This document shows, one piece after another, positions 5,724-64,000 of a stretch of DNA of 64,000 nucleotides. The position numbers were made by a program, and so were the translations under genes. The notes beneath the pieces are model-generated. The model ran no database searches. It worked only from the letters and a program-made list of their open reading frames with translations, and had not been told where the DNA came from. Every line of letters begins with the position of its first letter. Position 1 is the first letter of the stretch. This DNA is from Candidatus Yanofskybacteria bacterium (lineage in GTDB: Bacteria; Patescibacteriota; Minisyncoccia; 2-02-FULL-40-12; GWA2-44-9): positions 45,895 to 109,894 of the forward strand of contig DOSG01000008.1 in NCBI GenBank assembly GCA_003514055.1, in the 5' to 3' direction.

Positions 5724-7285
5724 TCTGGGCCTTTGTTTACCAAAAGAGCGGCAGAAACGGCAAGCATAAGAAAGGCGCGTTCGTCGAATATAGCTACGTC
5801 AGTCATTAAGTAAGCGAAGACCCACGGAATGAATAATAGACTTGCACCATAATAAGTTGCCAGCGTGGTGTCCGCCTTAGAATCGATGAATTTTCTATAG
5901 ATTATTTTGAATAACTCAAACAAGAATGCACATAGCGCAATCAGGGCAAAAACGCCCATCTCCGCGGCTACGTGCAAATAAATATTATGCGCCGAAGATC
6001 CAGCCTTAGACAGTTTAATATCTTGAGACAACACGACTGGATAATTACCAATACCCACTCCCAACAATGGATGGTCCGCTATAGATACTAAACTTTTTTT
6101 CCAGATTTCTATTCTTTGAGCGTTAGAAGTCTCACCAAAATCTATGACTGATCTAATTCGATTACCAAGCATGCTCCAATCCCCTTTTGATAATAAAAAT
6201 TGAGGCGAAGTAAATATCGGATAGGCAACAAAGAACATCATAAAAAACAAAATTATGTAGCTAGAAATGAATTTAAAATAACTCACCTTAGTTTCTTTCT
6301 TAATCGTCATATAGATAATCACGCCGATAGCAAGCGCAACCACTCCCACACTCGCCGCCCAGAAACCTCTGGTGCCAGTTAAAATTACTGCTAGGAATAT
6401 TATCGGCACCCAAACCACGAATAGCTTAGTCCTTGTTTTAATCAAATCTTGGAATTTCGCACCAACATCCATTTTGCGCATAGTCCAAGCAAAAATAGCT
6501 GGCATACCCAGAAGCAGAAATATTGGGAAAGAATGAGAATCTGGAAAAAGAGAAAACATCCTCAACGAAAGTTGCTCTCCGTAGTAAGCGAACCAAGTAT
6601 TACCAACCCTCACGGCAATATCGCACCATTGCTGACCAAACTGATTGCATTGGATGTTCTCACCCCATATGCGCATGAATTGATAAATATCAATAAAGTA
6701 ACTTGAGGCCAATTGTAAAAAACCAATAATCGTAACTAGTAAAACCGGAATCGTTAAGGCTCGAATTAGTCGCTTCGAAAAATCGCTACTTCTCGTGGTT
6801 AGATAGTAAACTGGAAAGCCAACCAAGCTTAAATTAGTAAAATAGATAATTCTTTTGATAGCGGCCGCCTTATCCGAAGCCATGGACACTGAAAGTAACA
6901 TCAGCGCATAAAGTGCAACGAGAGCCATTGCGTACAAAGGGCGCCATTGTACAAAGGCGCCCTTTGTAAAGATTTTCGTGGTTTTAAGCCGGGACAAAAA
7001 CCATTTCACGAATAATATGACTGAGAATATCCTCCAAGAATTAAAGTTATCAAAGCTAGAACTGAATGGAATCGCCAAAAACATCGGGATTGAGGCCGCA
7101 AAAAATATTACTCCATCCTCCAGCGGTGCTAAGATCAAATACAAAGCTAACATGGCCACTAAATATAAAACGAATTCGCGAGGTATAAGACCAGAAATAA
7201 CCAGAAAGAAGCAGATAACCTCAGCCACGTAAACTATTCCGCCAGTTTTTTTATTATTTAACATTCTCAAAAAATGATTTAGCAA
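5720..7285 (-). CDS. O-antigen ligase/Wzy-like polytopic membrane protein
   Basis: More than 10 predicted TM helices; SSAHNIYLHVAAEMG motif typical of the Wzy_C / O-antigen ligase family. Confidence 0.75.
   Translation of the reverse strand: MLNHFLRMLNNKKTGGIVYVAEVICFFLVISGLIPREFVLYLVAMLALYLILAPLEDGVIFFAASIPMFLAIPFSSSFDNFNSWRIFSVILFVKWFLSRLKTTKIFTKGAFVQWRPLYAMALVALYALMLLSVSMASDKAAAIKRIIYFTNLSLVGFPVYYLTTRSSDFSKRLIRALTIPVLLVTIIGFLQLASSYFIDIYQFMRIWGENIQCNQFGQQWCDIAVRVGNTWFAYYGEQLSLRMFSLFPDSHSFPIFLLLGMPAIFAWTMRKMDVGAKFQDLIKTRTKLFVVWVPIIFLAVILTGTRGFWAASVGVVALAIGVIIYMTIKKETKVSYFKFISSYIILFFMMFFVAYPIFTSPQFLLSKGDWSMLGNRIRSVIDFGETSNAQRIEIWKKSLVSIADHPLLGVGIGNYPVVLSQDIKLSKAGSSAHNIYLHVAAEMGVFALIALCAFLFELFKIIYRKFIDSKADTTLATYYGASLLFIPWVFAYLMTDVAIFDERAFLMLAVSAALLVNKGPD
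6933..6969. repeat. GC-rich palindromic mini-element, in frame inside the Wzy-like CDS
   Basis: TACAAAGGGCGCC-ATTGTACAAA-GGCGCCCTTTGTAA. 12-bp perfect stem. Translated in frame as TKGAFVQWRPLY. Confidence 0.6.
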
Positions 7286-8360
7286 AACTGCTCCAGCTAA
7301 GCCTTGGAATTAATTCTTTGTATCTATCCTTACAATATTTTCTTTTTTGCTCGTCTTTGAGTCCCCTATCAATAGCATCGGCAATCTTTTCTGAGGTACC
7401 GTTTGCAGCAAAAAAAGCAGCATCGTTAAAAAGTTCGTGATTCAAGGCGTTGTCCATCACAACTACTGGTACGCCATATGAAGCCGCTTCCACCGGCGGC
7501 AAACCGAACGCCTCTGATTCAGATACATAAACAACCAATTCGGCGCTAGAATACAATCTTGAGATTTCGTCATCAGCTACATAGTCACGATAATTAATTC
7601 TTTCACGGCCAAATCTATTATTCATTTCTTTAACCATGCTCTGAATTATCGGTCTGGGATATTTATCCCGGCCCACCAATATTAATCTCAGATCTGGATA
7701 TTTGGGGGCTATCTGACTAAAAGCTAATATCGTTTCTTTGGCGTGGCGTCTTGCAAACATTTGGCCCACGTATAATATGTACAGGCTATTCGATTTAAAA
7801 TCTTGTGCAACTTCTCTAGCCCGATGGGACCCAAGACGTGAAACAAATATCTTATTTGGTTTTATTTTGTATAGTCTGGCAACCTCATCTTTCGATGCCC
7901 CCGATATGGCCATGATTTTATAAGCGAACTTCGCGGCCCAGTTAGTAAACATCCCATAGGCTAATCTATATTTGAACGGCAACGTACCTTGCTTGTACTC
8001 ATAGTAAACATCGTTGGTCAGTATCACTACGGCTTTCCCTAAGTATAATGGCGGCATCATATAGGCCGGGAAAAACATTCTATCGACGCCGTCGAGCATT
8101 GCCTTAACTGGCATTAAAATGTGATAAAAAATATTAAACGATTTTAGGGACTTCCAGCCGACGATTCTTTTGACGAATATTGGATTCTTCAGAACTTCGT
8201 CGTCGGGGATGAATTGATTGAAATATAGATATAATTTAAATTCTTTATGCCATTCTATATTTTTCTCATATTCTTTAAGTAAATTTAAAACCACGTGGCC
8301 AACGCCCCATCTAGACTTTGCATCCTCTAAATTTTCGCACTCAATCCCTATTTTAAGCAT
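7254..8360 (-). CDS. glycosyltransferase family 1 (GT4)
   Basis: C-terminal EAFGLPPVEAASYGVPVVV GT-B motif. Confidence 0.85.
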   Translation of the reverse strand: MLKIGIECENLEDAKSRWGVGHVVLNLLKEYEKNIEWHKEFKLYLYFNQFIPDDEVLKNPIFVKRIVGWKSLKSFNIFYHILMPVKAMLDGVDRMFFPAYMMPPLYLGKAVVILTNDVYYEYKQGTLPFKYRLAYGMFTNWAAKFAYKIMAISGASKDEVARLYKIKPNKIFVSRLGSHRAREVAQDFKSNSLYILYVGQMFARRHAKETILAFSQIAPKYPDLRLILVGRDKYPRPIIQSMVKEMNNRFGRERINYRDYVADDEISRLYSSAELVVYVSESEAFGLPPVEAASYGVPVVVMDNALNHELFNDAAFFAANGTSEKIADAIDRGLKDEQKRKYCKDRYKELIPRLSWSSFAKSFFENVK

Positions 8361-8666: not shown

Positions 8667-9608
8667 TTAATTTCCTATTTTGCCCATTTTATCTTTATAA
8701 AAATCGAATACTCCGTTTAGTATTGCCTGCGACCTTTCTTTTTCGATACCAAATATCAATTTGATTATCTGCTTTTTAATAATCCAGATGCTCCAGGGCC
8801 ACAATAATATTTGCACCCACCACGGACCAAATTTACGATTGAAATAAAGAGCGTTACGGTAATGATATCTCAACAGTAACGGAGACCCTAATTTTTTGGT
8901 TGAGGCCGATACCTTATGATTAATAGATACTCCTTCGGCTATGCCGATTGAAAACCCGGCTTGAGCCGCAGTCAATGATAAGTCGGCATCTTCAAAGTAC
9001 AGAAAATAGTCCTCATCCATTAGGCCAATCTTTTCAAACACATCACTAGATATGGCCGCGCCACCACCGATGGCGTAGATATTAGAAACACAATGGCCGC
9101 GTTGAATACAATGGCTGTCTTTTAGGCCGCAAAGACAGCCATTGTATTCAGGCGTATATATGTGTCCGAGGGTAGGCTTTAGCCACTTCACCAAGCCAGC
9201 ATAGGCCGTATGCCCACCCTCATCCAAAGGTATTGAAACTACCCCCCTTTTGAGCCTCAAAACGGCCTTTAGGCGAGCGATAAAGTCCTTTTCAGGTGTT
9301 GTATCGTTATTGATCAAAATCACCCATTTTGACCCTCCGGCCAAGGCCTTTTTTATGCCCACATTACACCCCCCAGAAAAGCCGAGGTTTTGACCATTTT
9401 TAATAACCACCAGGTTCTGCCAACCATGCTTTTTTTGATACTCATTGAGCCTATCTATGTCGGCCACGTTAGAACCATTCTCAACTACAATCAATTCGAA
9501 ATCAGAATCGGTTTGATTCTTAAATATATTTAGAAGATTAATCGTGTCTTCTGCTCCGTTATAATTTACAGTTACTATTGATATCTTCATCTTATCCATT
9601 AATACCAT
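8667..9608 (-). CDS. glycosyltransferase family 2
   Basis: KISIVTVNYNGAEDT...ELIVVENGS GT-A signature. Confidence 0.85.
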   Translation of the reverse strand: MVLMDKMKISIVTVNYNGAEDTINLLNIFKNQTDSDFELIVVENGSNVADIDRLNEYQKKHGWQNLVVIKNGQNLGFSGGCNVGIKKALAGGSKWVILINNDTTPEKDFIARLKAVLRLKRGVVSIPLDEGGHTAYAGLVKWLKPTLGHIYTPEYNGCLCGLKDSHCIQRGHCVSNIYAIGGGAAISSDVFEKIGLMDEDYFLYFEDADLSLTAAQAGFSIGIAEGVSINHKVSASTKKLGSPLLLRYHYRNALYFNRKFGPWWVQILLWPWSIWIIKKQIIKLIFGIEKERSQAILNGVFDFYKDKMGKIGN

Positions 9609-9968: not shown

Positions 9969-10054
9969 GTAAGCCTCCCCTGCTTAGAAACTGAGCCGAT
10001 AATCTCACAAATCCCGGCATGCGTCAATTAACTCAAGGTGTTTAAAAATAGCGG

Positions 10055-10098
10055 GAGGAACTTTCGAGAGGCTCTCGCAGGAACGAAAGTTTTCCCCC
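10055..10098. repeat. hairpin sharing the GAGAGGCTCTCG core with the 17446 element (partial copy / terminator of the GT4 gene)
   Basis: AACTTTCG-AGAGGCTCTCGCAGGAA-CGAAAGTT followed by TTTCCCCC. Confidence 0.4.
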
Positions 10099-10102
10099 TA
10101 TT

Positions 10103-11167
10103 TTACTCGATTATCTCCAATATAGCATTTCTAAAATTTTCGAGAGAGAATCTCTTGGCTGATTCTTTGATAAGATTTGGGCTATATTTGTGATAATTAT
10201 CATTGAGCCTTCTAATGCCATCTGCCAAAGCTTCTGGTATCGGATCGTCAAAAAATTCTCCAGTAACCCCCTCTTCGATGATCTCCATGGCACCGCCCCT
10301 ACGTAGTGCCACTACTGGCTTGCCATAAGCCATAGCCTCAACCGGAGCAATCCCGAAATCTTCTTCTTGCGGCATAATGAATGCCCGACAATTCTTGTAA
10401 TAGCCAGCCAAAAACTCATCAGAAACGAATCCCAGCAAATCAACATTATCGCCAGCCATCCTTTTTAATCTCCTCTTGGTCGGCCCATCGCCGATTATGA
10501 TCAAGGGTAATTTTAGCTTATTAAAAGTATCAATAACCAAGGCAATATTTTTATAGTCATAAAGCCTCGAAACAATCAGATAATAATTCTCAATAGTCGG
10601 CACAAAATCTGATTCTATGTTGTAGGTATTCACTGGTGGGAATATAATCTTTGAATCTCTGTGGTAGTATTTTTTTATCCTATCTTGAACATTCTTCGAT
10701 ATGGCGATAAATTCATCGACTCTATCCGAGGCCAAGCGATCCCATATTCTTAAATAGTGTCTGGCGACTTTGCTAATTAATCCCGATCTTTCGTAGTCTG
10801 AATTTCTATCCCATAAAAATCTTGTTGGGCTATAGCAATAACAAATATGCCTAGTTTTTGGTTTTAGAACTAATCCCTTTGAGAAAATTACAGATGATGA
10901 GATTACTAGGTCAAATTCAGACAAATCAAATGACTCGATAATGCTAGGCATTATAAATGCTAAATATGGGTAAGCGGTCATCACGAAGGGAAGTCTCTGC
11001 AATCTGCTAGCTACAATTTTAGTATTAGGCAAATATCTACTAGTCAGCTTTTTCTTGTGAAATAAGGTATAAATCGGCGCATTGGGAAATATTTCATGCA
11101 AAGCAATAAGGGTGCGTTCGGCACCCCCCAAATTTAGAACCCAATCATGTACCAGCGCTATTTTCAT
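10103..11167 (-). CDS. glycosyltransferase family 1 (GT4)
   Basis: MKIALVHDW...GGAERT N-terminus and GIAPVEAMAYGKPVV C-terminal motif. Confidence 0.85.
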   Translation of the reverse strand: MKIALVHDWVLNLGGAERTLIALHEIFPNAPIYTLFHKKKLTSRYLPNTKIVASRLQRLPFVMTAYPYLAFIMPSIIESFDLSEFDLVISSSVIFSKGLVLKPKTRHICYCYSPTRFLWDRNSDYERSGLISKVARHYLRIWDRLASDRVDEFIAISKNVQDRIKKYYHRDSKIIFPPVNTYNIESDFVPTIENYYLIVSRLYDYKNIALVIDTFNKLKLPLIIIGDGPTKRRLKRMAGDNVDLLGFVSDEFLAGYYKNCRAFIMPQEEDFGIAPVEAMAYGKPVVALRRGGAMEIIEEGVTGEFFDDPIPEALADGIRRLNDNYHKYSPNLIKESAKRFSLENFRNAILEIIE

Positions 11168-14031: not shown

Positions 14032-14105
14032 AAGTCACCTCCATGATGTAGCGCTCGACTCATTAACTTTACGCCATCATTAGATACTGTCAAGCTGGCG
14101 AACTA

Positions 14106-14145
14106 AAATCAAAACCCCTCGTTATTTCGAGGGGTTTTGATTTTA
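14106..14145 (-). terminator. rho-independent terminator of the ribosomal operon (16-bp stem)
   Basis: AAATCAAAACCCCTCG-TTATTT-CGAGGGGTTTTGATTT; 42 nt downstream of the rpsI stop. Confidence 0.75.
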
Positions 14146-16960: not shown

Positions 16961-17398
16961 CTAGACTCTCCTCGGTTTCTTACTCCTAACGCCATTATGC
17001 GCAACCGGGGTATTGTCCTGGATCGATAAAACATTCAAACCCGTTCCAGCTATGCCTCTGATCGCCGATTCTCGGCCGGGTCCAATTCCCTTAGCGATAA
17101 TCTTGATATTGGTCAGATTAAACTTTTTAGCTTTCTCTACACAATCCTTAGCAACCATATTTGCGGCATAAGGAGTAGACTTCTTGGTACCCTTAAAACC
17201 CAAGCCACCAGCCGATGACCAAGCAATAATATCGCCTTTCTGATCGCTGATAGCAATAGAAGTATTATTATACGAAACGTTAATGTGGGCTATACCATTT
17301 ATAACTTGTTTCTTACTACTTTTCTTAGGAGCTGCGGGAGCGTTGCTTTCTGTTGCTCCAGAAGTCTCGGTTTTTGTGATGATTTTCTTTTTTCCCAT
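16961..17398 (-). CDS. rpsK: 30S ribosomal protein S11
   Basis: GIAHINVSYNNT...KGIGPGRESAIR. Confidence 0.95.
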   Translation of the reverse strand: MGKKKIITKTETSGATESNAPAAPKKSSKKQVINGIAHINVSYNNTSIAISDQKGDIIAWSSAGGLGFKGTKKSTPYAANMVAKDCVEKAKKFNLTNIKIIAKGIGPGRESAIRGIAGTGLNVLSIQDNTPVAHNGVRSKKPRRV

Positions 17399-17445
17399 TT
17401 TATTTAAATTCTCGAATCTACTAAGACGTTAGACTCAGACATAAG

Positions 17446-17526
17446 TTCTGAGAGGCTCTCGGAGCGCGACTGGCGCGAGAGAGAGGGTGATTTCTAGTAA
17501 GAAATAAACCCGTACTCGAAAAACTT
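17446..17526. repeat. conserved structured intergenic element (copy B) in the 152-nt rpsM-rpsK spacer
   Basis: GAGAGGCTCTCG / GCGC-GACTG-GCGC / GAGAGGGTGATTTCT-AGTA-AGAAATA / AACCCGTACTCGAAAAACTT; homologous to 63393-63477. Confidence 0.55.
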
Positions 17527-17550
17527 GTGTCTGGGCCTAACTAATATTCT

Positions 17551-17937
17551 TTATGTCTTCTCGGATGACGGTTTTCTGCCAGAGCCCATGGTTCTTCTTA
17601 CGTTGCCCCTGGTAGTTCTTGAATTTGTCTTAGAACGGCCATGCAGCGGCAACCTGTGCGCGTGTCTGAGTCCTCTCCAGGCCCCAATTTCCTTCAATCT
17701 TTTTATGTTTCCAGTGACTTCTTTTCTTAAGTCTCCTTCTACCTTATAGCTCAATTCAATTATCTTTTGGATTTTATTTAGTTCCTCAGTCGTTAAATCT
17801 TTGGCTAGCTTATTCTCATCGATACCTACGGTTCTTAAAATTATCCTGCTAGTGCTAAAACCTAAACCATAAACATACGGTAATGAGTAAACAATCTTCT
17901 TTTTATCAGGAATGACTATACCTAGAATTCTTGGCAT
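17551..17937 (-). CDS. rpsM: 30S ribosomal protein S13 (start at MPRILGI; the ORF-track start is 5 codons upstream)
   Basis: MPRILGIVIPDKKKIVYSLPYVYGLG...GLRH. Confidence 0.9.
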   Translation of the reverse strand: MPRILGIVIPDKKKIVYSLPYVYGLGFSTSRIILRTVGIDENKLAKDLTTEELNKIQKIIELSYKVEGDLRKEVTGNIKRLKEIGAWRGLRHAHRLPLHGRSKTNSRTTRGNVRRTMGSGRKPSSEKT

Positions 17938-28958: not shown

Positions 28959-31900
28959 ATTCCATCATTTTACGTAGCGCACAATATTCGCAGTCTTTTT
29001 CTTTGCATCCCTTATCCCAAAAATCCAGATTCATTATTTCTTGAGATGTTTTAATGACTAATTCTTTAAGTTCTACGACCTCATCGGACGTGACATAGAA
29101 ACTTTCTTTCTTATATCTCCCCTTCTCGTCCGGCTCTATGAAATCAATGTCACCCGATATCATTTTAAATTTCTTGCCTTCAGCATAATTATTCAATAAC
29201 AAATTGTAGAATACCAGCTGTCTTTTTATATCACCATTAGATGTTTGAGTAGTACCCTCAATTTCGCCACGAGTTTTCTGCCTACCAGTTTTATAATCAA
29301 CCACGTTCACCTCTCCCGAGTCATTCAGTATCTCAATTTTATCTATCTTACCAGTAATCCTAACGTCCGCGGCAACGACTATCCCTGGTATGTTGAATTC
29401 ATTCAAAAGATTAGCCCTCCAGTGACCAACGTAATTATCGTAATAACCAGAAAGCGATTTCTCTCCTTTCTGAAGCACTTCTTCAAAATCACTCTCCTTA
29501 AGGGGTTCTCTCTGTAAATATGTGACAAACTTACTCAATAGCATCTCTTTATTAGCTTCGCCTTCCTTGATTTTATCGAAGAAATCTTTGAGCGCACCGT
29601 GAATAGCTGTGCCATACATTTGATGCTTATCTTTGGCTTTTGGTATGCGTAACAGATTAGTATAGAAATACTGCCACGGACATCTTAGATAGTTGTTTAA
29701 GCCCGTAACTGATAACCCATTCTTAGTGAATAAGTCTTTTATGAATTCTTTGTCTTTTATACTTGTTCCAGATTTCACTTTTGGCGTAAACATAATTGTT
29801 CTGTCTCTTTCAAATCCATCTTCATACTCATCGGCAACGACGGTTTCTATGAGATCGGATTTAATCTCCTGGATAAATTGAGATGGTATCTGCTGCTTAC
29901 CGGAAAGTGCTTCCTGGGCATATGTAATTGTCACCAATTTCTTAGCTCGAGTTATGGCCACATAAAATAATCTCCTCTCGTCATCATTTCCATCATCATC
30001 TGCAAGATCCTTATCCTTACAAAGGGCGCCCCTGAGGGGCGCCCTTTGTAACCCAAGAGAATAGACCGAGGCAGGCAAAGACAACAGGTTAGTTCGCCTC
30101 TTATTACCCCAGTGGCCGTCAAAAGCATTCACTATATATACATATTCGAACTCCTGTCCTTTCGATCTGTGGGCGGTCATGAGTCTTATATTCTTTGTGC
30201 CCGATTGGCCTAAACTCTTTTTAATAAGTAGATTATGTATCTGAAGGGTGTCTATATATTTTATAAAATCGCGTAGATCGTAATCTTTGTGTTTCTCCAA
30301 CAATGACTTGATCTCGTTGAATAATCCATCCAATTTTTGCATCTTCTCAGCTACGTCCTTTTCTTTCATTATGTGAGCTAGAAAGCCAGACTCGTTTATC
30401 ATCAACTCGAAGAATTCCGATAAGCCCTGGTTTTTCTGAATCGTAGCCCACCCCGCTACTTTTTTATAGAAATCATGAATTTTATCGGCTGATTCGAGAT
30501 CAATACGCTCAAGATTCTTCTTATGTTTTACAATATCGTGTACGGGAATCTTTTCTTTGTTTGAATAGTTTATGATTTTGTATACGTCCAGCGGATCAAT
30601 ACCTAGAAAATCAATATGCATAGATTCGAGTATCCTAGCCTGAGATCCGAAATTATCCACCAGGCGCATTATCAGCATAAGCTTCTTAATATCGGGATCA
30701 GACAAAATATCCTGATCAGATTCTATAGCAAAAGGCACGTCAACTCTTTCAAGCATATCCGCAAAAGTAAAAACATCTTTATTGTCACGATACAGGATGG
30801 CAATCTCGGACGGCACAACGCCCTTAGAAATTAAATTCTTTATGCTTTTAGCCACGAAATACGCCTCAACTTTTGGCTTTGAAAAGGATAAAAGCCTTAT
30901 CTTTTCCTCTTCGTATCTCATATTAGCTTGTAGTTGCTTATCTCCGGCCAAGATACTATGGGCCGAATCTAGAATATTTTGAGTTGAGCGATAATTATCT
31001 TCCAAGACAATTAGTCTTGCCTTAGGATACAAATTCTTGAAATATAGAAAATTCTCTATAGATGCACCCTGGAATCTGAATATGGCCTGTTTCTCGTCGC
31101 CAACCACGAATATGTTTGGATTAGGATGGAAATTACAGAGTAGCTCCAGAACCTTATTCTGGGCATTATTTGTATCCTGGTGTTCGTCTACTAGCATGTA
31201 CTGGTGTTGCTCCTGCAATATCAATAAAAGATTCTGATTCTGACTGAGTTCTCGCAGAACCTCCATAATCATATCGCTATAGTCATACATCTTATTCTCA
31301 GCCAACTGCTTCTGATAAAATCCGTAGACCACGGCCAACTCCTTATTTTTTCGAATCTGCTTTTCAATTTTCTGATATTCACCCTTCATCTTACCCTTGT
31401 GTGCACCTTTCTCATGATAAAGATCGTCAATCGATGTAAAGTCTTTCTCCTCTTTCTCTACTAGCAGCTTAAATCCTTCCGGGCTAAGACCTTCGCGCTT
31501 AAGATCGTTTAAAGATTTCAAAATTTCTCGCGTGTAATAAAGCGGATCACCGAATGGCTTGAGATCCTTAAGAGGTAGGCCATCGATGGCTTTTTCGATG
31601 ATATTTATCTGATCAACTTCAGTAATATTCTGCGACCCAATGATTGCCGGAAATTCTTCGGGGTAATTTTTAATCACGTCATTGCAAAAACCATGAAAAG
31701 TACTTATCACCACCGAATATCCTGGAGTGCCAATAATCTCGACTAATCGTCTGCGCATTGAAGATACGCCAGATTCTGTGAATGTAAGCGCTAAAATATT
31801 TTCCGGTTCAGTATCGGTCTTCTTTAGTATATTAGCGATGCGCAAAGTCAAAATCTGGGTCTTGCCAGTTCCGGGTCCAGCCACCACCATCACAGGCCCA

Positions 31901-43016: not shown

Positions 43017-43021
43017 ACAAA

Positions 43022-43060
43022 GTATACTAAAACGCGCCTACTTGGCGCGTTTTAGTATAC
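43022..43060. terminator. 17-bp perfect palindrome (terminator) after tRNA-Arg
   Basis: GTATACTAAAACGCGCC-TACTT-GGCGCGTTTTAGTATAC. Confidence 0.65.
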
Positions 43061-43101
43061 TTATACTTTTTCTAAAATTTCGTTAGTACCCATATTCAGC
43101 A

Positions 43102-43129
43102 TTGACAAGTGCCATACAAGTGATATTTT
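43102..43129 (+). promoter_or_regulatory. candidate promoter TTGACA-16-(TG)ATATTTT
   Basis: TTGACA 43102-43107; extended -10 at 43121-43129; GGAGG SD at 43153-43157. Confidence 0.4.
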
Positions 43130-43163
43130 ACTCTCAGTTCGTTCTGGATTACGGAGGTTAATC

Positions 43164-43355
43164 ATGTCAGAGCAGAAGATTAGAAAGAGGAGATGGGCGC
43201 ATTATTCTAATATCTGCAAGTTTTGTAATGGACATAACTTTTTACTAAATACTTCAAGACTGGTGCTAGAGCAATGCCCACATTGTGATGGTACGGGCTA
43301 TGGAGATCAAGAACCGCCAGACGATGGCACTCCAGGCTCCAGCAATGCCGCATAG
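43164..43355 (+). CDS. small zinc-ribbon-like protein (63 aa)
   Basis: CKFC...CPHC pair of CxxC motifs; good promoter, SD and terminator. Confidence 0.55.
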   Translation: MSEQKIRKRRWAHYSNICKFCNGHNFLLNTSRLVLEQCPHCDGTGYGDQEPPDDGTPGSSNAA

Positions 43356-43362
43356 ATCATTC

Positions 43363-43385
43363 GCCGACTGACGTCGGCTTTTTTG
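43363..43385 (+). terminator. rho-independent terminator
   Basis: GCCGAC-TGAC-GTCGGC-TTTTTT. Confidence 0.65.
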
Positions 43386-43396
43386 ATACGCCGAAG

Positions 43397-43424
43397 TTGA
43401 CAAATATCGCCCGCATGGTATTCT
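43397..43424 (+). promoter_or_regulatory. candidate promoter TTGACA-16-TATTCT
   Basis: GAGGAG SD before the ATG at 43452. Confidence 0.4.
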
Positions 43425-43451
43425 AAGTTCACGTTCTTTGAGGAGAGGTCA

Positions 43452-43655
43452 ATGTGCCAAACAATGCCCGACGCTCCCGAGCCATTGGGGAAATTATTTC
43501 TTCAGGCAGCGAGAGACAGGAATATCGCGCTCTTGAATAGTGTTTTTGGTAGATGTCTTATGTGGGGAAAATACATGCGACAACTCCCAATTCAAGATCA
43601 AAAATGGGTTAGCAAGCACGCAGGGAGAACGAGAGAATCTGGAGTCACTGCCTAA
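43452..43655 (+). CDS. small hypothetical protein (67 aa)
   Basis: ORF track plus promoter and SD signals. Confidence 0.45.
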   Translation: MCQTMPDAPEPLGKLFLQAARDRNIALLNSVFGRCLMWGKYMRQLPIQDQKWVSKHAGRTRESGVTA

Positions 43656-43720
43656 ACTAGGCAAACTCTTAGAATGTCTTCTAATCTCAACGTTCTAACT
43701 AGAAGGCGATACATTGCGTT

Positions 43721-43797
43721 GCCCCAGTAGCATGGGGCTTTTTCGTACCTTAAGTCGTCCCAACTTAAAACCCGTCAGCCAATGGCTGACGGGTTTT
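43721..43797. terminator. tandem terminator hairpins (43721-43744 and 43767-43797)
   Basis: GCCCCA-GTAGCA-TGGGGC-TTTTT and AAAACCCGTCAGC-CAATG-GCTGACGGGTTTT. Confidence 0.6.
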
Positions 43798-43815
43798 AAT
43801 ATATGGTAATCATAT

Positions 43816-43944
43816 TTATTCTTGCTTCAGGGCCTCTTCCTTTGCAACCTCTTCCTTCTTACCATCCTCGCATCCACACGTGCAGGTACCATCCTCCTTT
43901 GTGTGCTCATGCATACATTTCAAACATTTTTTTTCGTCTGTCAT
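43816..43944 (-). CDS. unannotated 42-aa Cys-rich ORF (below ORF-track cut-off)
   Basis: Manual translation gives MTDEKKCLKCMHEHTKEDGTCTCGCEDGKKEEVAKEEALKQE; weak RBS. Confidence 0.3.
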   Translation of the reverse strand: MTDEKKCLKCMHEHTKEDGTCTCGCEDGKKEEVAKEEALKQE

Positions 43945-44047
43945 AGGTATATCACTGATATTACTAGTTAATAGTCGACCCCCTCAAGCATGCTCTTTGC
44001 CGAGGATAATGCAAGCATACTTTGAAATCTCAGGCAAAAATGTTCTA

Positions 44048-44076
44048 ATTGACTAATAAAAAGATTGACTGTAATT
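44048..44076 (+). promoter_or_regulatory. candidate promoter TTGACT-17-TAATTA
   Basis: Located upstream of the ATG at 44101. Confidence 0.35.
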
Positions 44077-47476: not shown

Positions 47477-47529
47477 TCTCGCCTCTTTTCAAAGACCACG
47501 TTAACTCTATTAAATCATTTGCTCGCAAT

Positions 47530-47560
47530 AAAACAACCCCGCCTAGGCGGGGTTGTTTTA
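47530..47560 (-). terminator. terminator downstream of tRNA-Gly
   Basis: AAAACAACCCCGCC-TAG-GGCGGGGTTGTTTT. Confidence 0.7.
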
Positions 47561-47593
47561 TTGGATTGAATGAGTTCATGTCATCACAATTTG

Positions 47594-47665: not shown

Positions 47666-47935
47666 AATATCTTGCAGATTACTTAAATACGTCTACATAA
47701 GAGCTGCGTCTTGATAAAAGCATAGTATCAAAAATATAGTCTATTTTCAACCATTAGCGTCACTATGCATTTGTGAAGAAATACAAAAAAATATAGTTAC
47801 CCTATACTAAGAGCATTACGACCGTTCATCTGGCTACCGAAGACGAAGAAGAATAGATTGCCGGTCAATGATGAGCCTAGACTAGACGACATAGGTTTTC
47901 GTTAAAACATTAGATAACTATTGAAATAGTCCATT

Positions 47936-47965
47936 AGCAAAACCGCCCCAATGGGGCGGTTTTGC
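47936..47965 (-). terminator. terminator downstream of hup
   Basis: GCAAAACCGCCCC-AAT-GGGGCGGTTTTGC. Confidence 0.7.
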
Positions 47966-47996
47966 TAAAAAGTATTTTGGATCCAAAATACCTAGA

Positions 47997-48275
47997 TTAT
48001 AGAATAGCTTCTTTCAAAAGTTTACCCGGTGTAAATCTTGGCTTTTTGGAAGCTTTGATTTGGATTTTCTCTCCTGTTCTCGGGTTGACTCCTTCTCTAG
48101 CTTTTCTATCTGAAACCTTGAAGATACCGAAACCGGTTATGTTGACCTTATCGCCGGTTTTCAATACTTTCGTGATCTCATCTGTAAAAGCATCGATCCA
48201 CTCTAATGACTGCTTCTTAGAAACATTCATTTTCTCAGCTAAATTTTGAGCTAATTGACTCTTTTTGACTGGCAT
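47997..48275 (-). CDS. hup: DNA-binding protein HU
   Basis: GFGIFKVSDRKAREGVNPRTGEKIQI beta-arm motif. Confidence 0.85.
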   Translation of the reverse strand: MPVKKSQLAQNLAEKMNVSKKQSLEWIDAFTDEITKVLKTGDKVNITGFGIFKVSDRKAREGVNPRTGEKIQIKASKKPRFTPGKLLKEAIL

Positions 48276-48364
48276 ACGCACACCCCCTTTCTGTTTTAAT
48301 TATTGTACTTGTATAGTACTCAATCAAAATACTAGCATAAATACTAGATTTTTGGAACAACTGC

Positions 48365-52076: not shown

Positions 52077-53171
52077 TCACTTTATTACTCCTCCGCCAAG
52101 AAGAAGTTGTCCCCTGTAAAAAACTGCCGACTGGCCCGAAGTTATAGCTCTAACTGGTTTATCGAATTCTAAATTACCATCATCAGATAAAATGGCTTTT
52201 TCCGATTTAGTTCTGTATCTTATTTTAACGTCAATTCGTGCTGGTAATTTAATTGGACCATTGACCCAGCTGAGATTGCTCACGACCGTCTTCGTTGACT
52301 TGAGATCTTTCTCGCTTCCAACGTAAATAATATTTTTCTCTACGTCTTTTCCGATTACATAAAATGGACCATCTCCAGATTTAATATCTAACCCATGACG
52401 CTGGCCGATAGTATAGTAGAAAACACCATCGTGAGTTCCAATGGCTTGGCCATCTTTTATTATCTCGCCTTTTTTCGATTTTATTCTTTTCAGCAAGAAA
52501 TCTTTCACGTTTAATGGTCCGATGAAACAGACTCCTTGGCTATCCTTCTTCCCCGCATTCGGCAATTTAAATTTTTTGGCTAGTTTCCTTATTTCTGGCT
52601 TAGTATATCCTCCCACCGGGAATAAGCACCTTTCTATCTCTTTTTCTTTCAGAGTCCATAAAAAATAAGACTGGTCCTTGTTCTTATCTTTGCCCTGATA
52701 AAGATAAGAACCGCAAGAAACAAAGGGCGCCTTTTTGGCCCCAAAGGCGCCCTTTGTGATTTTTCTTACATAGTGTCCGGTAGCGATGAAATCCGCGCCC
52801 TCACTCAATGCTCTTTTCAAGAATAAGCCGAATTTAATCTCCTTGTTGCACATTACGTCAGGATTCGGAGTCCGACCAAGCTTATATTCTCTGATCATGT
52901 AATCGGCAACTTGTTTTTTATATTCCTTAGTAAAATCCCAGGTCTTAAATGGTATATTCAGACTAGCCGCGGCCTTCGCGGCTTCTTCGCGTTCTTCTTT
53001 CCATATACAAAAATCACCGACATCGGGTTGCCATTGTTTCATAAAAACTCCGACCACTTTATGGCCTTCTTGCTTGAGCAGTGCCGCAGCCACAGAACTA
53101 TCCACTCCACCGCTCATGGCCACATAAACCAGCTTTTTGTTGTTCTCTGCTAATCTTGACATAATAGTCAA
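52077..53171 (-). CDS. mnmA: tRNA 2-thiouridine(34) synthase MnmA
   Basis: PP-loop VAMSGGVDSSV; KDQSYFL motif. Confidence 0.9.
   Translation of the reverse strand: MTIMSRLAENNKKLVYVAMSGGVDSSVAAALLKQEGHKVVGVFMKQWQPDVGDFCIWKEEREEAAKAAASLNIPFKTWDFTKEYKKQVADYMIREYKLGRTPNPDVMCNKEIKFGLFLKRALSEGADFIATGHYVRKITKGAFGAKKAPFVSCGSYLYQGKDKNKDQSYFLWTLKEKEIERCLFPVGGYTKPEIRKLAKKFKLPNAGKKDSQGVCFIGPLNVKDFLLKRIKSKKGEIIKDGQAIGTHDGVFYYTIGQRHGLDIKSGDGPFYVIGKDVEKNIIYVGSEKDLKSTKTVVSNLSWVNGPIKLPARIDVKIRYRTKSEKAILSDDGNLEFDKPVRAITSGQSAVFYRGQLLLGGGVIK
52719..52757. repeat. GC-rich palindromic mini-element, in frame inside mnmA
   Basis: AACAAAGGGCGCC-TTTTTGGCCCCAAA-GGCGCCCTTTGT, translated as ITKGAFGAKKAPFV. Confidence 0.6.
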
Positions 53172-53185
53172 ATAATTATATTATC

Positions 53186-53545
53186 TTGGCAGCCGTTTTA
53201 CAAGAGGGGTGGGTCATCATGAACTTGCTCGTGGTGGTATTGCTATGCGTCCTTGTTTCATCTTTCTACCTAAATATGGGGTTCGGCATCAGGAAATTTG
53301 GAAGTTTAGTATTTAGAAATTGGCCTTCCGGAGCTTTTTTTGAAGAAGACATGAGATATGCGTGGGCGCTAATGTGGCCCTTCGCCATATTATTCATCGC
53401 CATCATTGCCATAATATACGCATTAGTGTGGATTTTCGCAAAATTGTTTGAAGCCATGCGCTCCATTGCTCTCTTCAGACACGTAATTAATTTCTTTGGA
53501 AGGGCAATAGGATATCTATTCCTCGGTAAAATGTGGAAAAAATAA
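53186..53545 (+). CDS. small membrane protein
   Basis: Three TM helices; followed by the terminator 53549-53576 (GACTCGC-ATAT-GCGAGTC-TTTT). Confidence 0.45.
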   Translation: MAAVLQEGWVIMNLLVVVLLCVLVSSFYLNMGFGIRKFGSLVFRNWPSGAFFEEDMRYAWALMWPFAILFIAIIAIIYALVWIFAKLFEAMRSIALFRHVINFFGRAIGYLFLGKMWKK

Positions 53546-53587
53546 TACGGACTCGCATATGCGAGTCTTTTGTTTTATACTTTCGAG

Positions 53588-53806
53588 ATGAGAATAAACG
53601 TAAAAGCTAAACCGGCCAGTCGCGAAGAAAAGGTTGAGAAAATTGATGAAACCAATTTTATTGTTTCAGTAAAAGAGCCGCCCATTCAGGGCCGAGCCAA
53701 TAAGGCCATAATCGAAACATTGGCGAAATATTTTGATATTTCAGCAATACGTATAAGAATCGTCTTCGGTGCCACCTCTCGCAACAAAATCATTGAGATT
53801 ACTTGA
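53588..53806 (+). CDS. DUF167/YggU family protein (start at MRINVK)
   Basis: VKAKPASREEKV ... GRANKAIIETLAKYF ... IVFGATSRNKII pattern. Confidence 0.55.
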   Translation: MRINVKAKPASREEKVEKIDETNFIVSVKEPPIQGRANKAIIETLAKYFDISAIRIRIVFGATSRNKIIEIT

Positions 53807-62639: not shown

Positions 62640-63359
62640 TTATTTAAAGAATCCCTGCTTAGCGATTAATCGACGATTCTGAACCTTCTCGTCTCTATCA
62701 ATTAACCCATCTTTGATATGTAATATCCTTTCAGCGCATTCAGCGACATACGATTCGTGAGTTACCAAAATTATTGTATTTCCCTGGGAATGTAAATCTT
62801 GCAAAAATGACATAATAATCTCACCAGACTTAGAATCCAAGCTTCCCGTTGGCTCATCAGCGAAAATAACCTTAGGATTATTAACTAGAGCACGGGCGAT
62901 AGCTACTCTTTGCTTTTGGCCTCCAGATAGCTTCGTAGTCTTGAAATCTACCCTGTCATTTAGGTCCACCAAGCTGACCATGTCTCTCGCTCGCTTGTCT
63001 CTTTCTTCCTCGGATAACCTAGCATAGATTAAGGGCAATTTAACATTTTCCAATACCGTCAATTTGGGTAGAAGATTAAAAGCCTGAAACACGAAGCCCA
63101 TCTCTTTGTTTCTAATATGCGCCAACTGGTCGTCTGAATACTCGGTTATATTGTGCCCATTAAATATATATTCGCCACCTGATGGCCTATCAAGCACTCC
63201 GAGAATTTGAAGAAGAGTAGATTTTCCGGAACCAGATGGACCGATGATGGCGACAAACTCGCCTTCGTTGATAGCCAAATCAACGCCATTCAATCCGGGC
63301 GTTCTTACGTCACCATCCACATATATCTTCTCTAGTGATTTAACTTCAATAAGAGCCAT
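62640..63359 (-). CDS. ABC transporter ATP-binding protein (MacB/LolD-type)
   Basis: Walker [18 protein letters not shown] signature, Walker B IIFADEPT. Confidence 0.9.
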
Positions 63360-63392
63360 AAATAATTATCGAGTTAAGGGCGCAGATGTTAA

Positions 63393-63477
63393 TTTTGAGA
63401 GACCCGCGCAGAGCCGACTGGGCTCGAGCGAGAGGGTGATTTCTCAGCAGAGAAATACAACCCGTGCTCGAAAAGTT
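63393..63477. repeat. conserved structured intergenic element (copy C) in the 145-nt spacer between the adaptor and ATPase genes
   Basis: GAGAGACCCGCGCA / GAGCC-GACTG-GGCTC / GAGCGAGAGGGTGATTTCTC-AGCA-GAGAAATA / CAACCCGTGCTCGAAAAGTT. Confidence 0.55.
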
Positions 63478-63504
63478 AATATCTGCGACCTCTCGACGCA
63501 CCTT

Positions 63505-64000
63505 CTATTGGATTAGAATTTTATCTCCGGCCACGAGGCCACTAACGATCTCCGTTTTTCCGTCTGACCCCTTCAGTCCTGTCGTAATTGGCATTTCATA
63601 TACAACAGCGACGTCATCTCTTGTAGCTACTGATAAATTAGCAAATCTTGTGTTGGAAGCATCGTCTTGATTAGCCACCACGATTTTTACATATTTCTGG
63701 CCATCTCTTTGATAAATAGCTCTGGTCGGAATTACTAGAACCCCGTCTCTCATATCATTGAGTATGTCCATATTAGCAGTTAAGCCCGAACGAATCCTCT
63801 CATCGCTTTCGACAAACTGCAACTTAGTCTCATATGTCGGAACTCCATCAATCATCTTTTCGGCTGGGTATATGCTTGTAACCTTAGCCTCCCAAGAAAA
63901 ATCTTGACCAAAAGCATCTAAGGTCACCTTGGCTGTATTACCTACATTAACCTTAGATATGTCAGCCTCTGGTATATTAGAGGTTATTTCATAATTTGAG
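63505..64000 (-). CDS. HlyD/MacA-family periplasmic adaptor, 5'-truncated by window end
   Basis: C-terminal beta-barrel/MP domain; frame stays open to the window edge. Confidence 0.8.
   Translation of the reverse strand, partial: SNYEITSNIPEADISKVNVGNTAKVTLDAFGQDFSWEAKVTSIYPAEKMIDGVPTYETKLQFVESDERIRSGLTANMDILNDMRDGVLVIPTRAIYQRDGQKYVKIVVANQDDASNTRFANLSVATRDDVAVVYEMPITTGLKGSDGKTEIVSGLVAGDKILIQ

Follow-up and report, generated by a model that had tools for sequence, protein, structure and literature searches.

A Y-shaped intergenic repeat with conserved fold in Candidatus Yanofskybacteria

The rpsM-rpsK locus

The stretch of DNA analysed here (the window) comprises 64,000 nucleotides of a Candidatus Yanofskybacteria bacterium (contig DOSG01000008.1, positions 45,895 to 109,894 of the forward strand; assembly GCA_003514055.1). 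Its ribosomal protein genes rpsM and rpsK are separated by 152 nt, a length given by a first-pass annotation of the sequence and confirmed from the gene coordinates; that both genes lie on the minus strand was absent from that annotation. The spacer is almost entirely filled by a structured element, termed the Y element, and a second copy lies between two genes of an ABC transporter type. In the following we describe the fold of this element, the family to which it belongs and the sites it occupies, and outline why it probably represents a mobile repeat that depends on its fold.

The window RpoA is 59-77% identical to RpoA of GTDB Yanofskybacteria, the window S11 is 99% identical to S11 of RIFOXYD1_FULL_44_17, and contigs of the same species include GCA_003483035.1. 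Loci from related genomes are given below by an L number and individual copies by letters. P1 denotes the outer stem of the element, P1' its continuation within the core, and P2 and P3 the two hairpins of the core. The features of the two sites in the window are as follows.

16961..17398, minus strand: rpsK (S11), downstream of copy A; Pfam Ribosomal_S11 on the identical protein
17399..17550, no strand: rpsM-rpsK intergenic spacer, 152 nt from open reading frame (ORF) coordinates
17551..17937, minus strand: rpsM (S13, 128 aa), upstream of copy A; Pfam Ribosomal_S13 and ORF
17428..17541, plus strand (model strand; antisense to rpsM and rpsK): copy A, Y-shaped element, from covariance models and folding
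17428..17449, plus strand: copy A, P1 5' arm GTTAGACTCAGACATAAGTTCT, partner 17520-17541
17520..17541, plus strand: copy A, P1 3' arm AAAACTTGTGTCTGGGCCTAAC
17450..17519, plus strand: copy A core, read directly from the sequence; starts with GA
17452-17454 with 17515-17517, plus strand: copy A P1', GAG paired with CTC, then G
17456-17460 with 17479-17483, plus strand: copy A P2a, CTCTC paired with GAGAG; internal loop GGA/GA
17464-17467 with 17473-17476, plus strand: copy A P2b, GCGC paired with GCGC; loop GACTG; A after P2
17485-17488 with 17508-17511, plus strand: copy A P3a, GGGT paired with ACCC
17490-17495 with 17500-17505, plus strand: copy A P3b, ATTTCT paired with AGAAAT; loop AGTA; GTA after P3, and GA ends the core
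62640..63359, minus strand: YknY/MacB-type ABC ATPase gene, one flank of copy B
63505..64000, minus strand: YknX/MacA-like adaptor gene, other flank of copy B
63370..63495, plus strand: copy B, Y-shaped element, between the yknX- and yknY-like genes and antisense to both
63375-63396 with 63472-63493, plus strand: copy B P1, extended by CGAG/CTCG
63397..63471, plus strand: copy B core; P1' GAG paired with CTC
Within the copy B core: P2a CCCGC paired with GCGAG (one C.A), internal loop GCA/GA, P2b GAGCC paired with GGCTC, loop GACTG
Within the copy B core: P3a GGGT paired with ACCC, P3b ATTTCTC paired with GAGAAAT, loop AGCA, then GTG

Fold and anatomy of the element

The strings quoted in the first-pass annotation are all present on the plus strand (17450-17527), and so is the second copy that it placed at 63393-63477. 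Its size of roughly 85 nt has to be corrected, as 85 nt cover the core only, and the element including the closing stem measures 114-126 nt. On the plus strand of the window the Y fold is a three-way junction of P1, P2 and P3, and folding with DNA parameters returns the same Y on either strand; as a single strand, be it RNA or DNA, the element is predicted to fold into a Y. Copy A folds with -53.7 kcal/mol as RNA (z -5.4; DNA fold z -5.7) and matches the covariance models R1 and R2 introduced below with 121 bits (E 3e-30) and 110.6 bits, respectively. Copy B scores 114.8 bits with R1 (E 1.6e-28) and folds with -61.3 kcal/mol (z -5.9).

The likeness of the two copies had been judged too great for chance, and this judgement holds: conserved 14-15-mers occur exactly twice each in the window without mismatch, and both copies fold far better than their dinucleotide shuffles (z -4.2 to -5.9), none of 200 being as good. 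The changes between the stems are equally real, namely GCGC/GCGC to GAGCC/GGCTC and ATTTCT/AGAAAT to ATTTCTC/GAGAAAT. The outer stems of A and B (20-25 bp) differ wholly in sequence, yet their pairing register is exactly equal. P1 of copy A consists of 18 Watson-Crick pairs, 2 G.U and 2 A.C/C.A pairs; at position 17448 the window has C and a strain with 97% identical S11 (L103) has T (TTCT vs TTTT).

Throughout the family P1 spans 17-30 nearly perfect base pairs of copy-specific sequence with a UUUU/AAAA inner end, and the core, (U)UUU-GA-GAG...CUC-GA-AAAA, holds two hairpins. The GA/GA step between P1 and P1' is Watson-Crick paired in other copies. A single purine follows P1'; P2 harbours an internal loop, RSA/GA, carries a GAC(U)G loop and is followed by one A; P3 has a bulged A and an AGYA loop, and GUR closes the junction, whose strands accordingly measure 1, 1 and 3 nt.

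A family with covarying helices

Covariance models retrieved 21 distinct copies from at least eight contig lineages, all on related Yanofskybacteria contigs. The first model (R1) was built from four sequences and found more divergent copies in related loci, and the second (R2) was run on loci retrieved via ProS and ABC-ATPase homologues. A pattern scan of metagenomes added two further copies; five of its ten matches were chance matches in coding sequence. In the alignment of 21 copies 92.9% of the pair cells hold standard pairs, compared with 64.3% after shuffling, and in 40 of the 44 pairs both sides have changed. Covariation scores 0.723 here and 0.21 in shuffled alignments (0 of 500 as high), and sliding the partners by 1-3 columns lowers the pairing to 39-46%. 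The alignment was fitted to the model, which somewhat inflates these figures; the first set of nine copies gave the same picture.

Two-sided changes occur in all five helices, each of which has 90-98% of its cells paired. Thus, P2a is found as CUCUC/GAGAG, UUUAC/GUAAA or CUAUC/GAUAG, P2b as GCGC, GGAC/GUCC or GCCU/AGGC, P3a as GGGU/ACCC, GGCG/CGCC or GGCU/AGCC, and P3b as AUUUCU, AAAUGCC or AAUCUUU. The covariation that the first-pass annotation had read from two copies is therefore strong in the wider family. That the likeness of A and B is a coincidence of two ordinary hairpin terminators, in a genome full of perfect hairpins, can be dismissed almost entirely in view of 21 distinct homologues (E down to 1e-32), the exact common 14-15-mers, the covariation, and the lack of a terminator-like site around copy A (17250-17700).

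No known family in Rfam 15 matches the element. A search of the whole window at gathering thresholds returned only 4 tRNAs; the spacer at E<=10 gave two snoRNA-like chance matches, both outside the element; and in the loci L092, L094, L112 and L113, where 10 copies represent all subtypes, no match at E<=1 fell on an element. A strict core pattern had 0 matches in the GTDB species genomes, among which the representative of the source species apparently differs or is absent. Four scans of viral contigs returned only chance G+C-rich matches, none of which passed the covariance model. The family has so far been seen only in Candidatus Yanofskybacteria (Patescibacteria), and the literature searched holds no description of such an element in Patescibacteria. 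The Y element is a previously uncatalogued repeat, described neither in Rfam nor in that literature.

Several structural candidates were considered and rejected. The P2 internal loop is not a K-turn, its bulge being too short, and kissing between the loops of P2 and P3 is contradicted by the lack of covariation between GAC(U)G and AGYA across the copies (judged by eye). Known classes of ribozymes, riboswitches and leaders are excluded by the Rfam result, and by eye the 1/1/3-nt junction fits neither the hammerhead nor the purine or TPP riboswitch. A seemingly truncated copy in the metagenome contig L088 proved to be an assembly artefact. Around 4881, 11885 and 12284 this contig lacks 97, 112 and 97 bp, respectively, compared with contigs to which it is otherwise 100% identical; of these gaps, one lies within an ORF, and the coding status of another is unclear.

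Occupied and empty sites

The rpsM-rpsK spacer is identical in four contigs of the window's species, and the element also resides in this spacer in the strain with 97% identical S11. In the nearest other species (L104/L105; S11 87% identical) the spacer is 2 nt long (TAA-TC-ATG), and relative to this species nearly the whole 152-nt spacer of the window is an insertion. Ten GTDB relatives (L005-L016) have spacers of 9-95 nt with unrelated hairpins or none, and without the element. Different palindromic sequences have landed repeatedly at the rpsM-rpsK junction. Short direct repeats accompany the unrelated hairpins in the 70-95-nt spacers of L006, L008, L009, L011, L012 and L013 (around 2180-2330 in each).

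The implied tie of the element to the ribosomal protein operon turned out to be wrong, as copies are found in unrelated operons. A role as cis-regulatory leader of rpsK or the alpha operon, either as an autoregulatory ribosomal protein site or as a riboswitch, is suggested by the position within a ribosomal protein operon and by the fact that three-way junctions often bind proteins or ligands. We consider it highly improbable, since neither the nearest species (2-nt spacer) nor 10 other relatives carry the element at this position, copies lie in both orientations in unrelated operons, the operon mRNA carries the reverse complement of the better-pairing strand, and Rfam offers no match. The same lack of an Rfam match, the orthologous spacers without element and the copies at unrelated loci agree with the first-pass annotation, which had recognised no known ribosomal protein leader or riboswitch.

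Beyond the rpsM-rpsK junction, Y elements occur between frr and rseP, between proS and mreB, behind mreB, between yknX-, yknY- and yknZ-like genes, and in the division and cell wall (dcw) cluster, both between ftsI and a Mur ligase gene and behind the latter. Occupancy varies here as well. The yknX-yknY spacer is empty in L223 (14 nt) and measures 145 nt in the window; in L220 (246 nt) and L217 (301 nt) it holds a pair of elements each. Likewise, L106 has a plain terminator in the proS-mreB spacer, L094 has element C there, and L113 carries an element other than C. All elements are found in intergenic DNA, at a distance of 0-15 nt from the neighbouring stop or start codons. Among the 21 distinct copies, 14 are antisense and 7 sense to the flanking genes, and 2 are ambiguous. 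Elements are single or arranged as head-to-head pairs, with (-)(+) pairs in L094, L106, L113, L217 and L220.

Copies C, D and M and a remnant in the window (described below) are flanked by A-tracts and T-tracts resembling those of terminators, and copies with such flanking runs sit where a relative has a normal terminator; copy A, located within an operon, lacks these runs. Judged by these flanks, some members of the family may terminate transcription.

Copying, inversion and decay

One line of evidence for movement is a 255-bp block of two head-to-head elements (J'-28 nt-F'), which is present between frr and rseP in L108 and, with its orientation reversed, between yknX and yknY in L217. The two contigs stem from one sample, and the two copies of the block differ only by 2 single-nucleotide polymorphisms and by a 49-nt hairpin nested in one of them. 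What they have in common continues for about 13 and 7 nt past the feet of the stems. No target-site duplication is visible at 10 copies or at the two 255-bp insertions, the ends being uncertain by a few nt.

A two-element block at frr-rseP is inverted between L094 (1306-1566) and L106 (8567-8826) or L113 (1-216); the genes flanking it are collinear and share 88% nucleotide identity. Core-to-core recombination was rejected as the cause of this inversion on grounds of reasoning, since its geometry would mismatch the arms.

Other copies are damaged or interrupted. One strain has lost one arm through a 37-bp deletion, and a half-copy (K) lies beside copy G in L092. Hairpins are nested within Y elements at L092 9331-9452, L220 10719-10856 and L217 9697-9860: G+C-rich, CCTGCCTGCCGRCAGGCAGG-like hairpins turn two of the copies into four-way junctions, and the 49-nt hairpin sits in P2 of the third. 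In the window itself a further trace is found:

about 10040..10105, plus strand: internally deleted remnant; stem AAAATAGCGGGAGGAACTTTC / GAAAGTTTTCCCCCTATTTT around the first 17 core nt (GAGAGGCTCTCGCAGGA)

The 5' core consensus TTTNGAGAGRCYNNCGSAG matches the remnant at 10062-10080 without mismatch, and the window holds three such matches (remnant, A and B) where 0.2 are expected; with R2 the remnant gives only a weak match (E 0.4). Read along the gene strand, it is a hairpin with a T-run behind it, located just after the glycosyltransferase gene 10103-11167. The remnant now resembles an intrinsic terminator, and this resemblance suggests that Y elements may be a source of new terminator hairpins. 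Furthermore, short contigs end within or beside an element, which fits a repeat that disrupts assemblies.

The first-pass annotation had proposed a folded RNA or a structured mobile repeat. This pair of options is upheld, and the mobile repeat is the better supported of the two, because near-identical copies at two loci, empty sites, inversions and deletions are observed.

Stem-core reassortment and strand bias

Cores and stems do not travel together. Copies A and C share cores of 92% identity, and their arms are 31% identical, which is the chance level; H and L220a have cores 97% identical and arms 50% identical; and G and L220c have an unusual core variant in common on unrelated stems. Conversely, F, F' and L220b all sit on one stem (CCAAGGAATAAGAC), and G sits on a diverged version of it; the cores of these copies differ by about 20%. 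Within P1 the innermost 7-9 bp are conserved in sequence, and the outer 12-20 bp differ for each copy.

Host coding sequence forms part of the stem of copy E, in which GCAAAGAGATAACAGAAACAAUUUU pairs with its complement. The stem begins with 12 nt that are the conserved 3' end of mreB (Ala-Lys-Arg-stop) and that are also found in relatives without the element, and therefore the far arm of copy E contains an inverted copy of host sequence. In L008 a coreless hairpin spans the same mreB stop codon. The insertion of a core into the loop of a pre-existing terminator is hence partly supported for copy E; it is contradicted for A and C, since the ancestral spacer of A has 2 nt and the terminator stem of the relative is unrelated to that of C. 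Palindrome extension by template switching and core conversion between copies are further possible routes to copy-specific stems.

On the model strand G.U pairs outnumber A.C pairs by 31:14 overall; among the copies that lie antisense to their neighbouring genes the ratio is 23:9. These are small, non-independent counts. A polymorphism between L107 and L106 exchanges G-C for G.U on the same strand. This bias suggests that one particular single strand, RNA or DNA, may be selected to fold, rather than simply the operon mRNA. As a means of assigning the active strand, the ratio of 31:14 is suggestive and not decisive, and it conflicts with the gene orientation.

The wobble bias and the L107/L106 polymorphism bear on the alternative that the element is a structured RNA with a function for the host, of which the model strand is the selected product and the spread by duplication is secondary. 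Such an RNA could bind proteins or serve processing ("operon punctuation"), or it could be a small RNA freed by cleavage of P1. Compensatory change in every helix, the invariant RSA/GA, A, GUR, GAC(U)G and AGYA motifs and the very stable fold (z about -5) also argue for it, as does the persistence of elements at frr-rseP in four species (ProS 79-91% identical), where the flanking spacer DNA is randomised. On the other hand, elements located 0-15 nt from coding sequences leave no room for a promoter, and no promoter-like site was found around copy A; the only obvious transcription runs antisense to two thirds of the copies; in close relatives many of the sites hold no element; internal deletions or nested insertions affect some copies; and copy density varies between 1 per 32 kb and 1 per 3 kb. 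Overall, we regard a host-functional RNA as a serious but rather unlikely explanation.

Relation to known systems

Bacterial genomes harbour several classes of palindromic repeats to which the Y element can be compared. Repetitive extragenic palindromic (REP) elements act as mRNA stabilisers, terminators or protein-binding sites and are recognised as folded single strands. The REP family, including the composite elements BIME and REPIN, resembles the Y element in being intergenic, palindromic, multi-copy and located between co-directional genes or at gene ends, and in forming pairs of alternating orientation. REPs are also co-transcribed, as Y elements would be, and lack target-site duplications, none of which is visible at Y elements; the (-)(+) pairs of Y elements, one of which was copied as a unit, correspond to those of REP/BIME. 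However, REPs are simple imperfect hairpins of 20-40 nt with a conserved GTAG/CGTC tag (PMC3733652). The Y element differs from them in size (about 117 nt) and in lacking a conserved tetranucleotide at the foot of its stem; moreover, REP stems are conserved in sequence, whereas the Y element is a three-way junction with a conserved centre and a copy-specific stem. No Y1 gene (REP-associated tyrosine transposase, RAYT) is present in the window or in the related loci.

[quoted passage not shown] Like the Y element, they insert between genes in either orientation, are co-transcribed and form long hairpins. These MITEs are non-autonomous repeats of 100-160 bp (for general reviews see PMC2229807 and PMC3184786). 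Their terminal inverted repeats are conserved and come with target duplications, in contrast to the Y element with its copy-specific arms, conserved branched interior and no visible duplications. The outer arms of Y copies are only 31-50% identical where the cores are 90-97% identical, and only the inner ends (UUUUGAGAG/CUCUCAAAA-like) recur among copies. Neither the 64-kb window nor the retrieved loci contain a full-length insertion sequence with cognate ends.

Integron attC sites share with the Y element the precedence of structure over sequence, the use of one folding strand, a similar size and the position after stop codons. This raises the question of whether a tyrosine recombinase uses Y elements as recombination sites in folded single-stranded DNA, in the manner of attC or of CTX-phage attP. 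The range of about 60-140 nt, the location directly behind stop codons of co-directional genes and the strand bias of wobble pairs would agree with such sites. Yet, their conservation is reversed: in attC the outer R and L boxes are conserved and the centre varies, and in the Y element the centre is conserved and the outer ends vary. RYYYAAC/GTTRRRY boxes were not seen by eye in the alignments, in which no pattern search was run. In addition, the neighbours are essential housekeeping operons rather than cassettes, both orientations occur within one operon direction, and no integrase is encoded in the window or the related loci. Recombination sites of this kind therefore appear very unlikely.

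The inverted terminal repeat (ITR) of parvoviruses such as adeno-associated virus (AAV) is a hairpin of about 120-145 nt, which is recognised by an HUH nuclease and exists in two orientations. The Y element resembles it in architecture only, as a long stem capped by two small hairpins (T or Y), but shows no homology and no viral context, the viral scans being negative. Finally, Rickettsia palindromic elements (RPEs) likewise are small palindromic repeats that spread in a reduced genome; in contrast to them, the Y element is found only between genes. Taken together, the Y element lacks defining features of both the REP and the MITE families, and the conservation pattern of attC is inverted in it.

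A probable fold-dependent mobile repeat

The fold of the family is kept by compensatory change, and its members are multi-copy, intergenic, placed in both orientations and subject to gain, loss, copying, inversion and decay. We consider it probable that the Y family is a non-autonomous, fold-dependent mobile repeat, akin to REP/BIME or Correia elements in its working and different in its architecture. The folded single-stranded form would be recognised by its shape by a trans-acting enzyme encoded elsewhere. By analogy, this enzyme might be an HUH/Y1-type transposase of the REP-RAYT or IS200/IS605 kind, a guess prompted by the lack of visible target duplications, the extension of the mobile unit 7-13 nt past the hairpin foot and the pairs of alternating orientation.

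An element inserted between genes that are transcribed together, for instance rpsM and rpsK, would become part of the operon mRNA. A perfect RNA duplex of 20-30 bp is cut by RNase III and blocks 3' exonucleases. The long duplex may form an intercistronic hairpin that provides an RNase III or other processing site or, where a U-run follows, a terminator or 3' stabiliser. Loss of the core would leave ordinary terminator-like hairpins.

Several observations weigh against this interpretation. Transposase, integrase, reverse transcriptase and Y1 domains are absent from the 50 ORFs of the window and from the called genes of the related loci. Ordinary MITEs have conserved terminal repeats, and the outer arms of the Y element vary from copy to copy. 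Where different species have a copy at the same locus, compensatory change preserves the fold, and the adjacent spacer DNA is unalignable; this suggests selection on the structure itself, and a purely selfish element would not need this at each site. The G.U excess persists on the model strand in gene-antisense copies (23:9), which a hairpin function in the operon mRNA would not predict. L108 and L217 are tied by their common sample, which does not prove origin from a single genome. Transcription, RNase III cleavage and termination at the elements are inferred.

A more speculative thought, which we put forward as doubtful, is that the Y element belongs to an undescribed mobility or processing system, in which the core is recognised by its fold and the long stem is rebuilt or exchanged at each site, or that it is an RNA domesticated for operon punctuation in compact Patescibacteria genomes. 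The stem may be rebuilt by insertion into hairpin loops, by templated inverted copying of flanking sequence or by core conversion. This idea draws on near-identical cores in unrelated perfect stems, on the same stem with different cores, on the inverted mreB copy in element E and on the G.U excess of one strand.

Other palindromes and unusual stretches

The window contains a second, unrelated palindrome family, TACAAAGGGCGCC...GGCGCCCTTTGTA, at 1185-1218, 6933-6968, 30018-30050 and 52719-52758, with 8 half-sites where 1.0 would be expected. Three of its copies are situated in frame within genes for a Wzy-type ligase, a UvrD/PD-(D/E)XK helicase-nuclease and mnmA. The MnmA protein of the window carries a 15-aa insertion (KITKGAFGAKKAPFV) exactly at the palindrome, which is absent in two relatives. 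These palindromes resemble in-frame insertions of the Rickettsia RPE type.

Perfect hairpins of 16-20 bp with unique sequences are located at 9103-9150, 14104-14145, 43020-43062, 43765-43799, 47526-47563 and 47934-47968. Most consist of an A-tract, a G+C-rich stem and a T-tract, and from this layout the perfect A-tract/T-tract hairpins of the window are likely bidirectional terminators. Three stretches (43017-44064, 47666-48364 and 53172-53798; 1048, 699 and 627 nt) harbour no ORF of at least 90 aa and no Rfam match at gathering thresholds; such long ORF-free stretches are unusual for so compact a genome. In L112 a G+C-rich stretch of 265 nt after proS (7085-7350) folds very strongly (-117 kcal/mol) and matches nothing in Rfam at E<=1; the end of the contig truncates it.

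Implications for compact genomes

Bacteria of the Candidate Phyla Radiation (CPR), or Patescibacteria, have tiny, tightly packed genomes, from which very few mobile elements or non-coding RNAs have been described. The Y element inserts into gaps of a few nt in essential operons for ribosomal proteins, cell division and translation factors without destroying them. It would account for the breaking of assemblies of these genomes at such spacers, and new intercistronic hairpins and terminators would arise as its cores decay and leave the stems behind. Both the alignment and the covariance model are in a state suited to Rfam-style curation. The family poses a concrete question: by what mechanism does a conserved branched core become enclosed by perfect stems that differ from copy to copy, and which of the strands is read?

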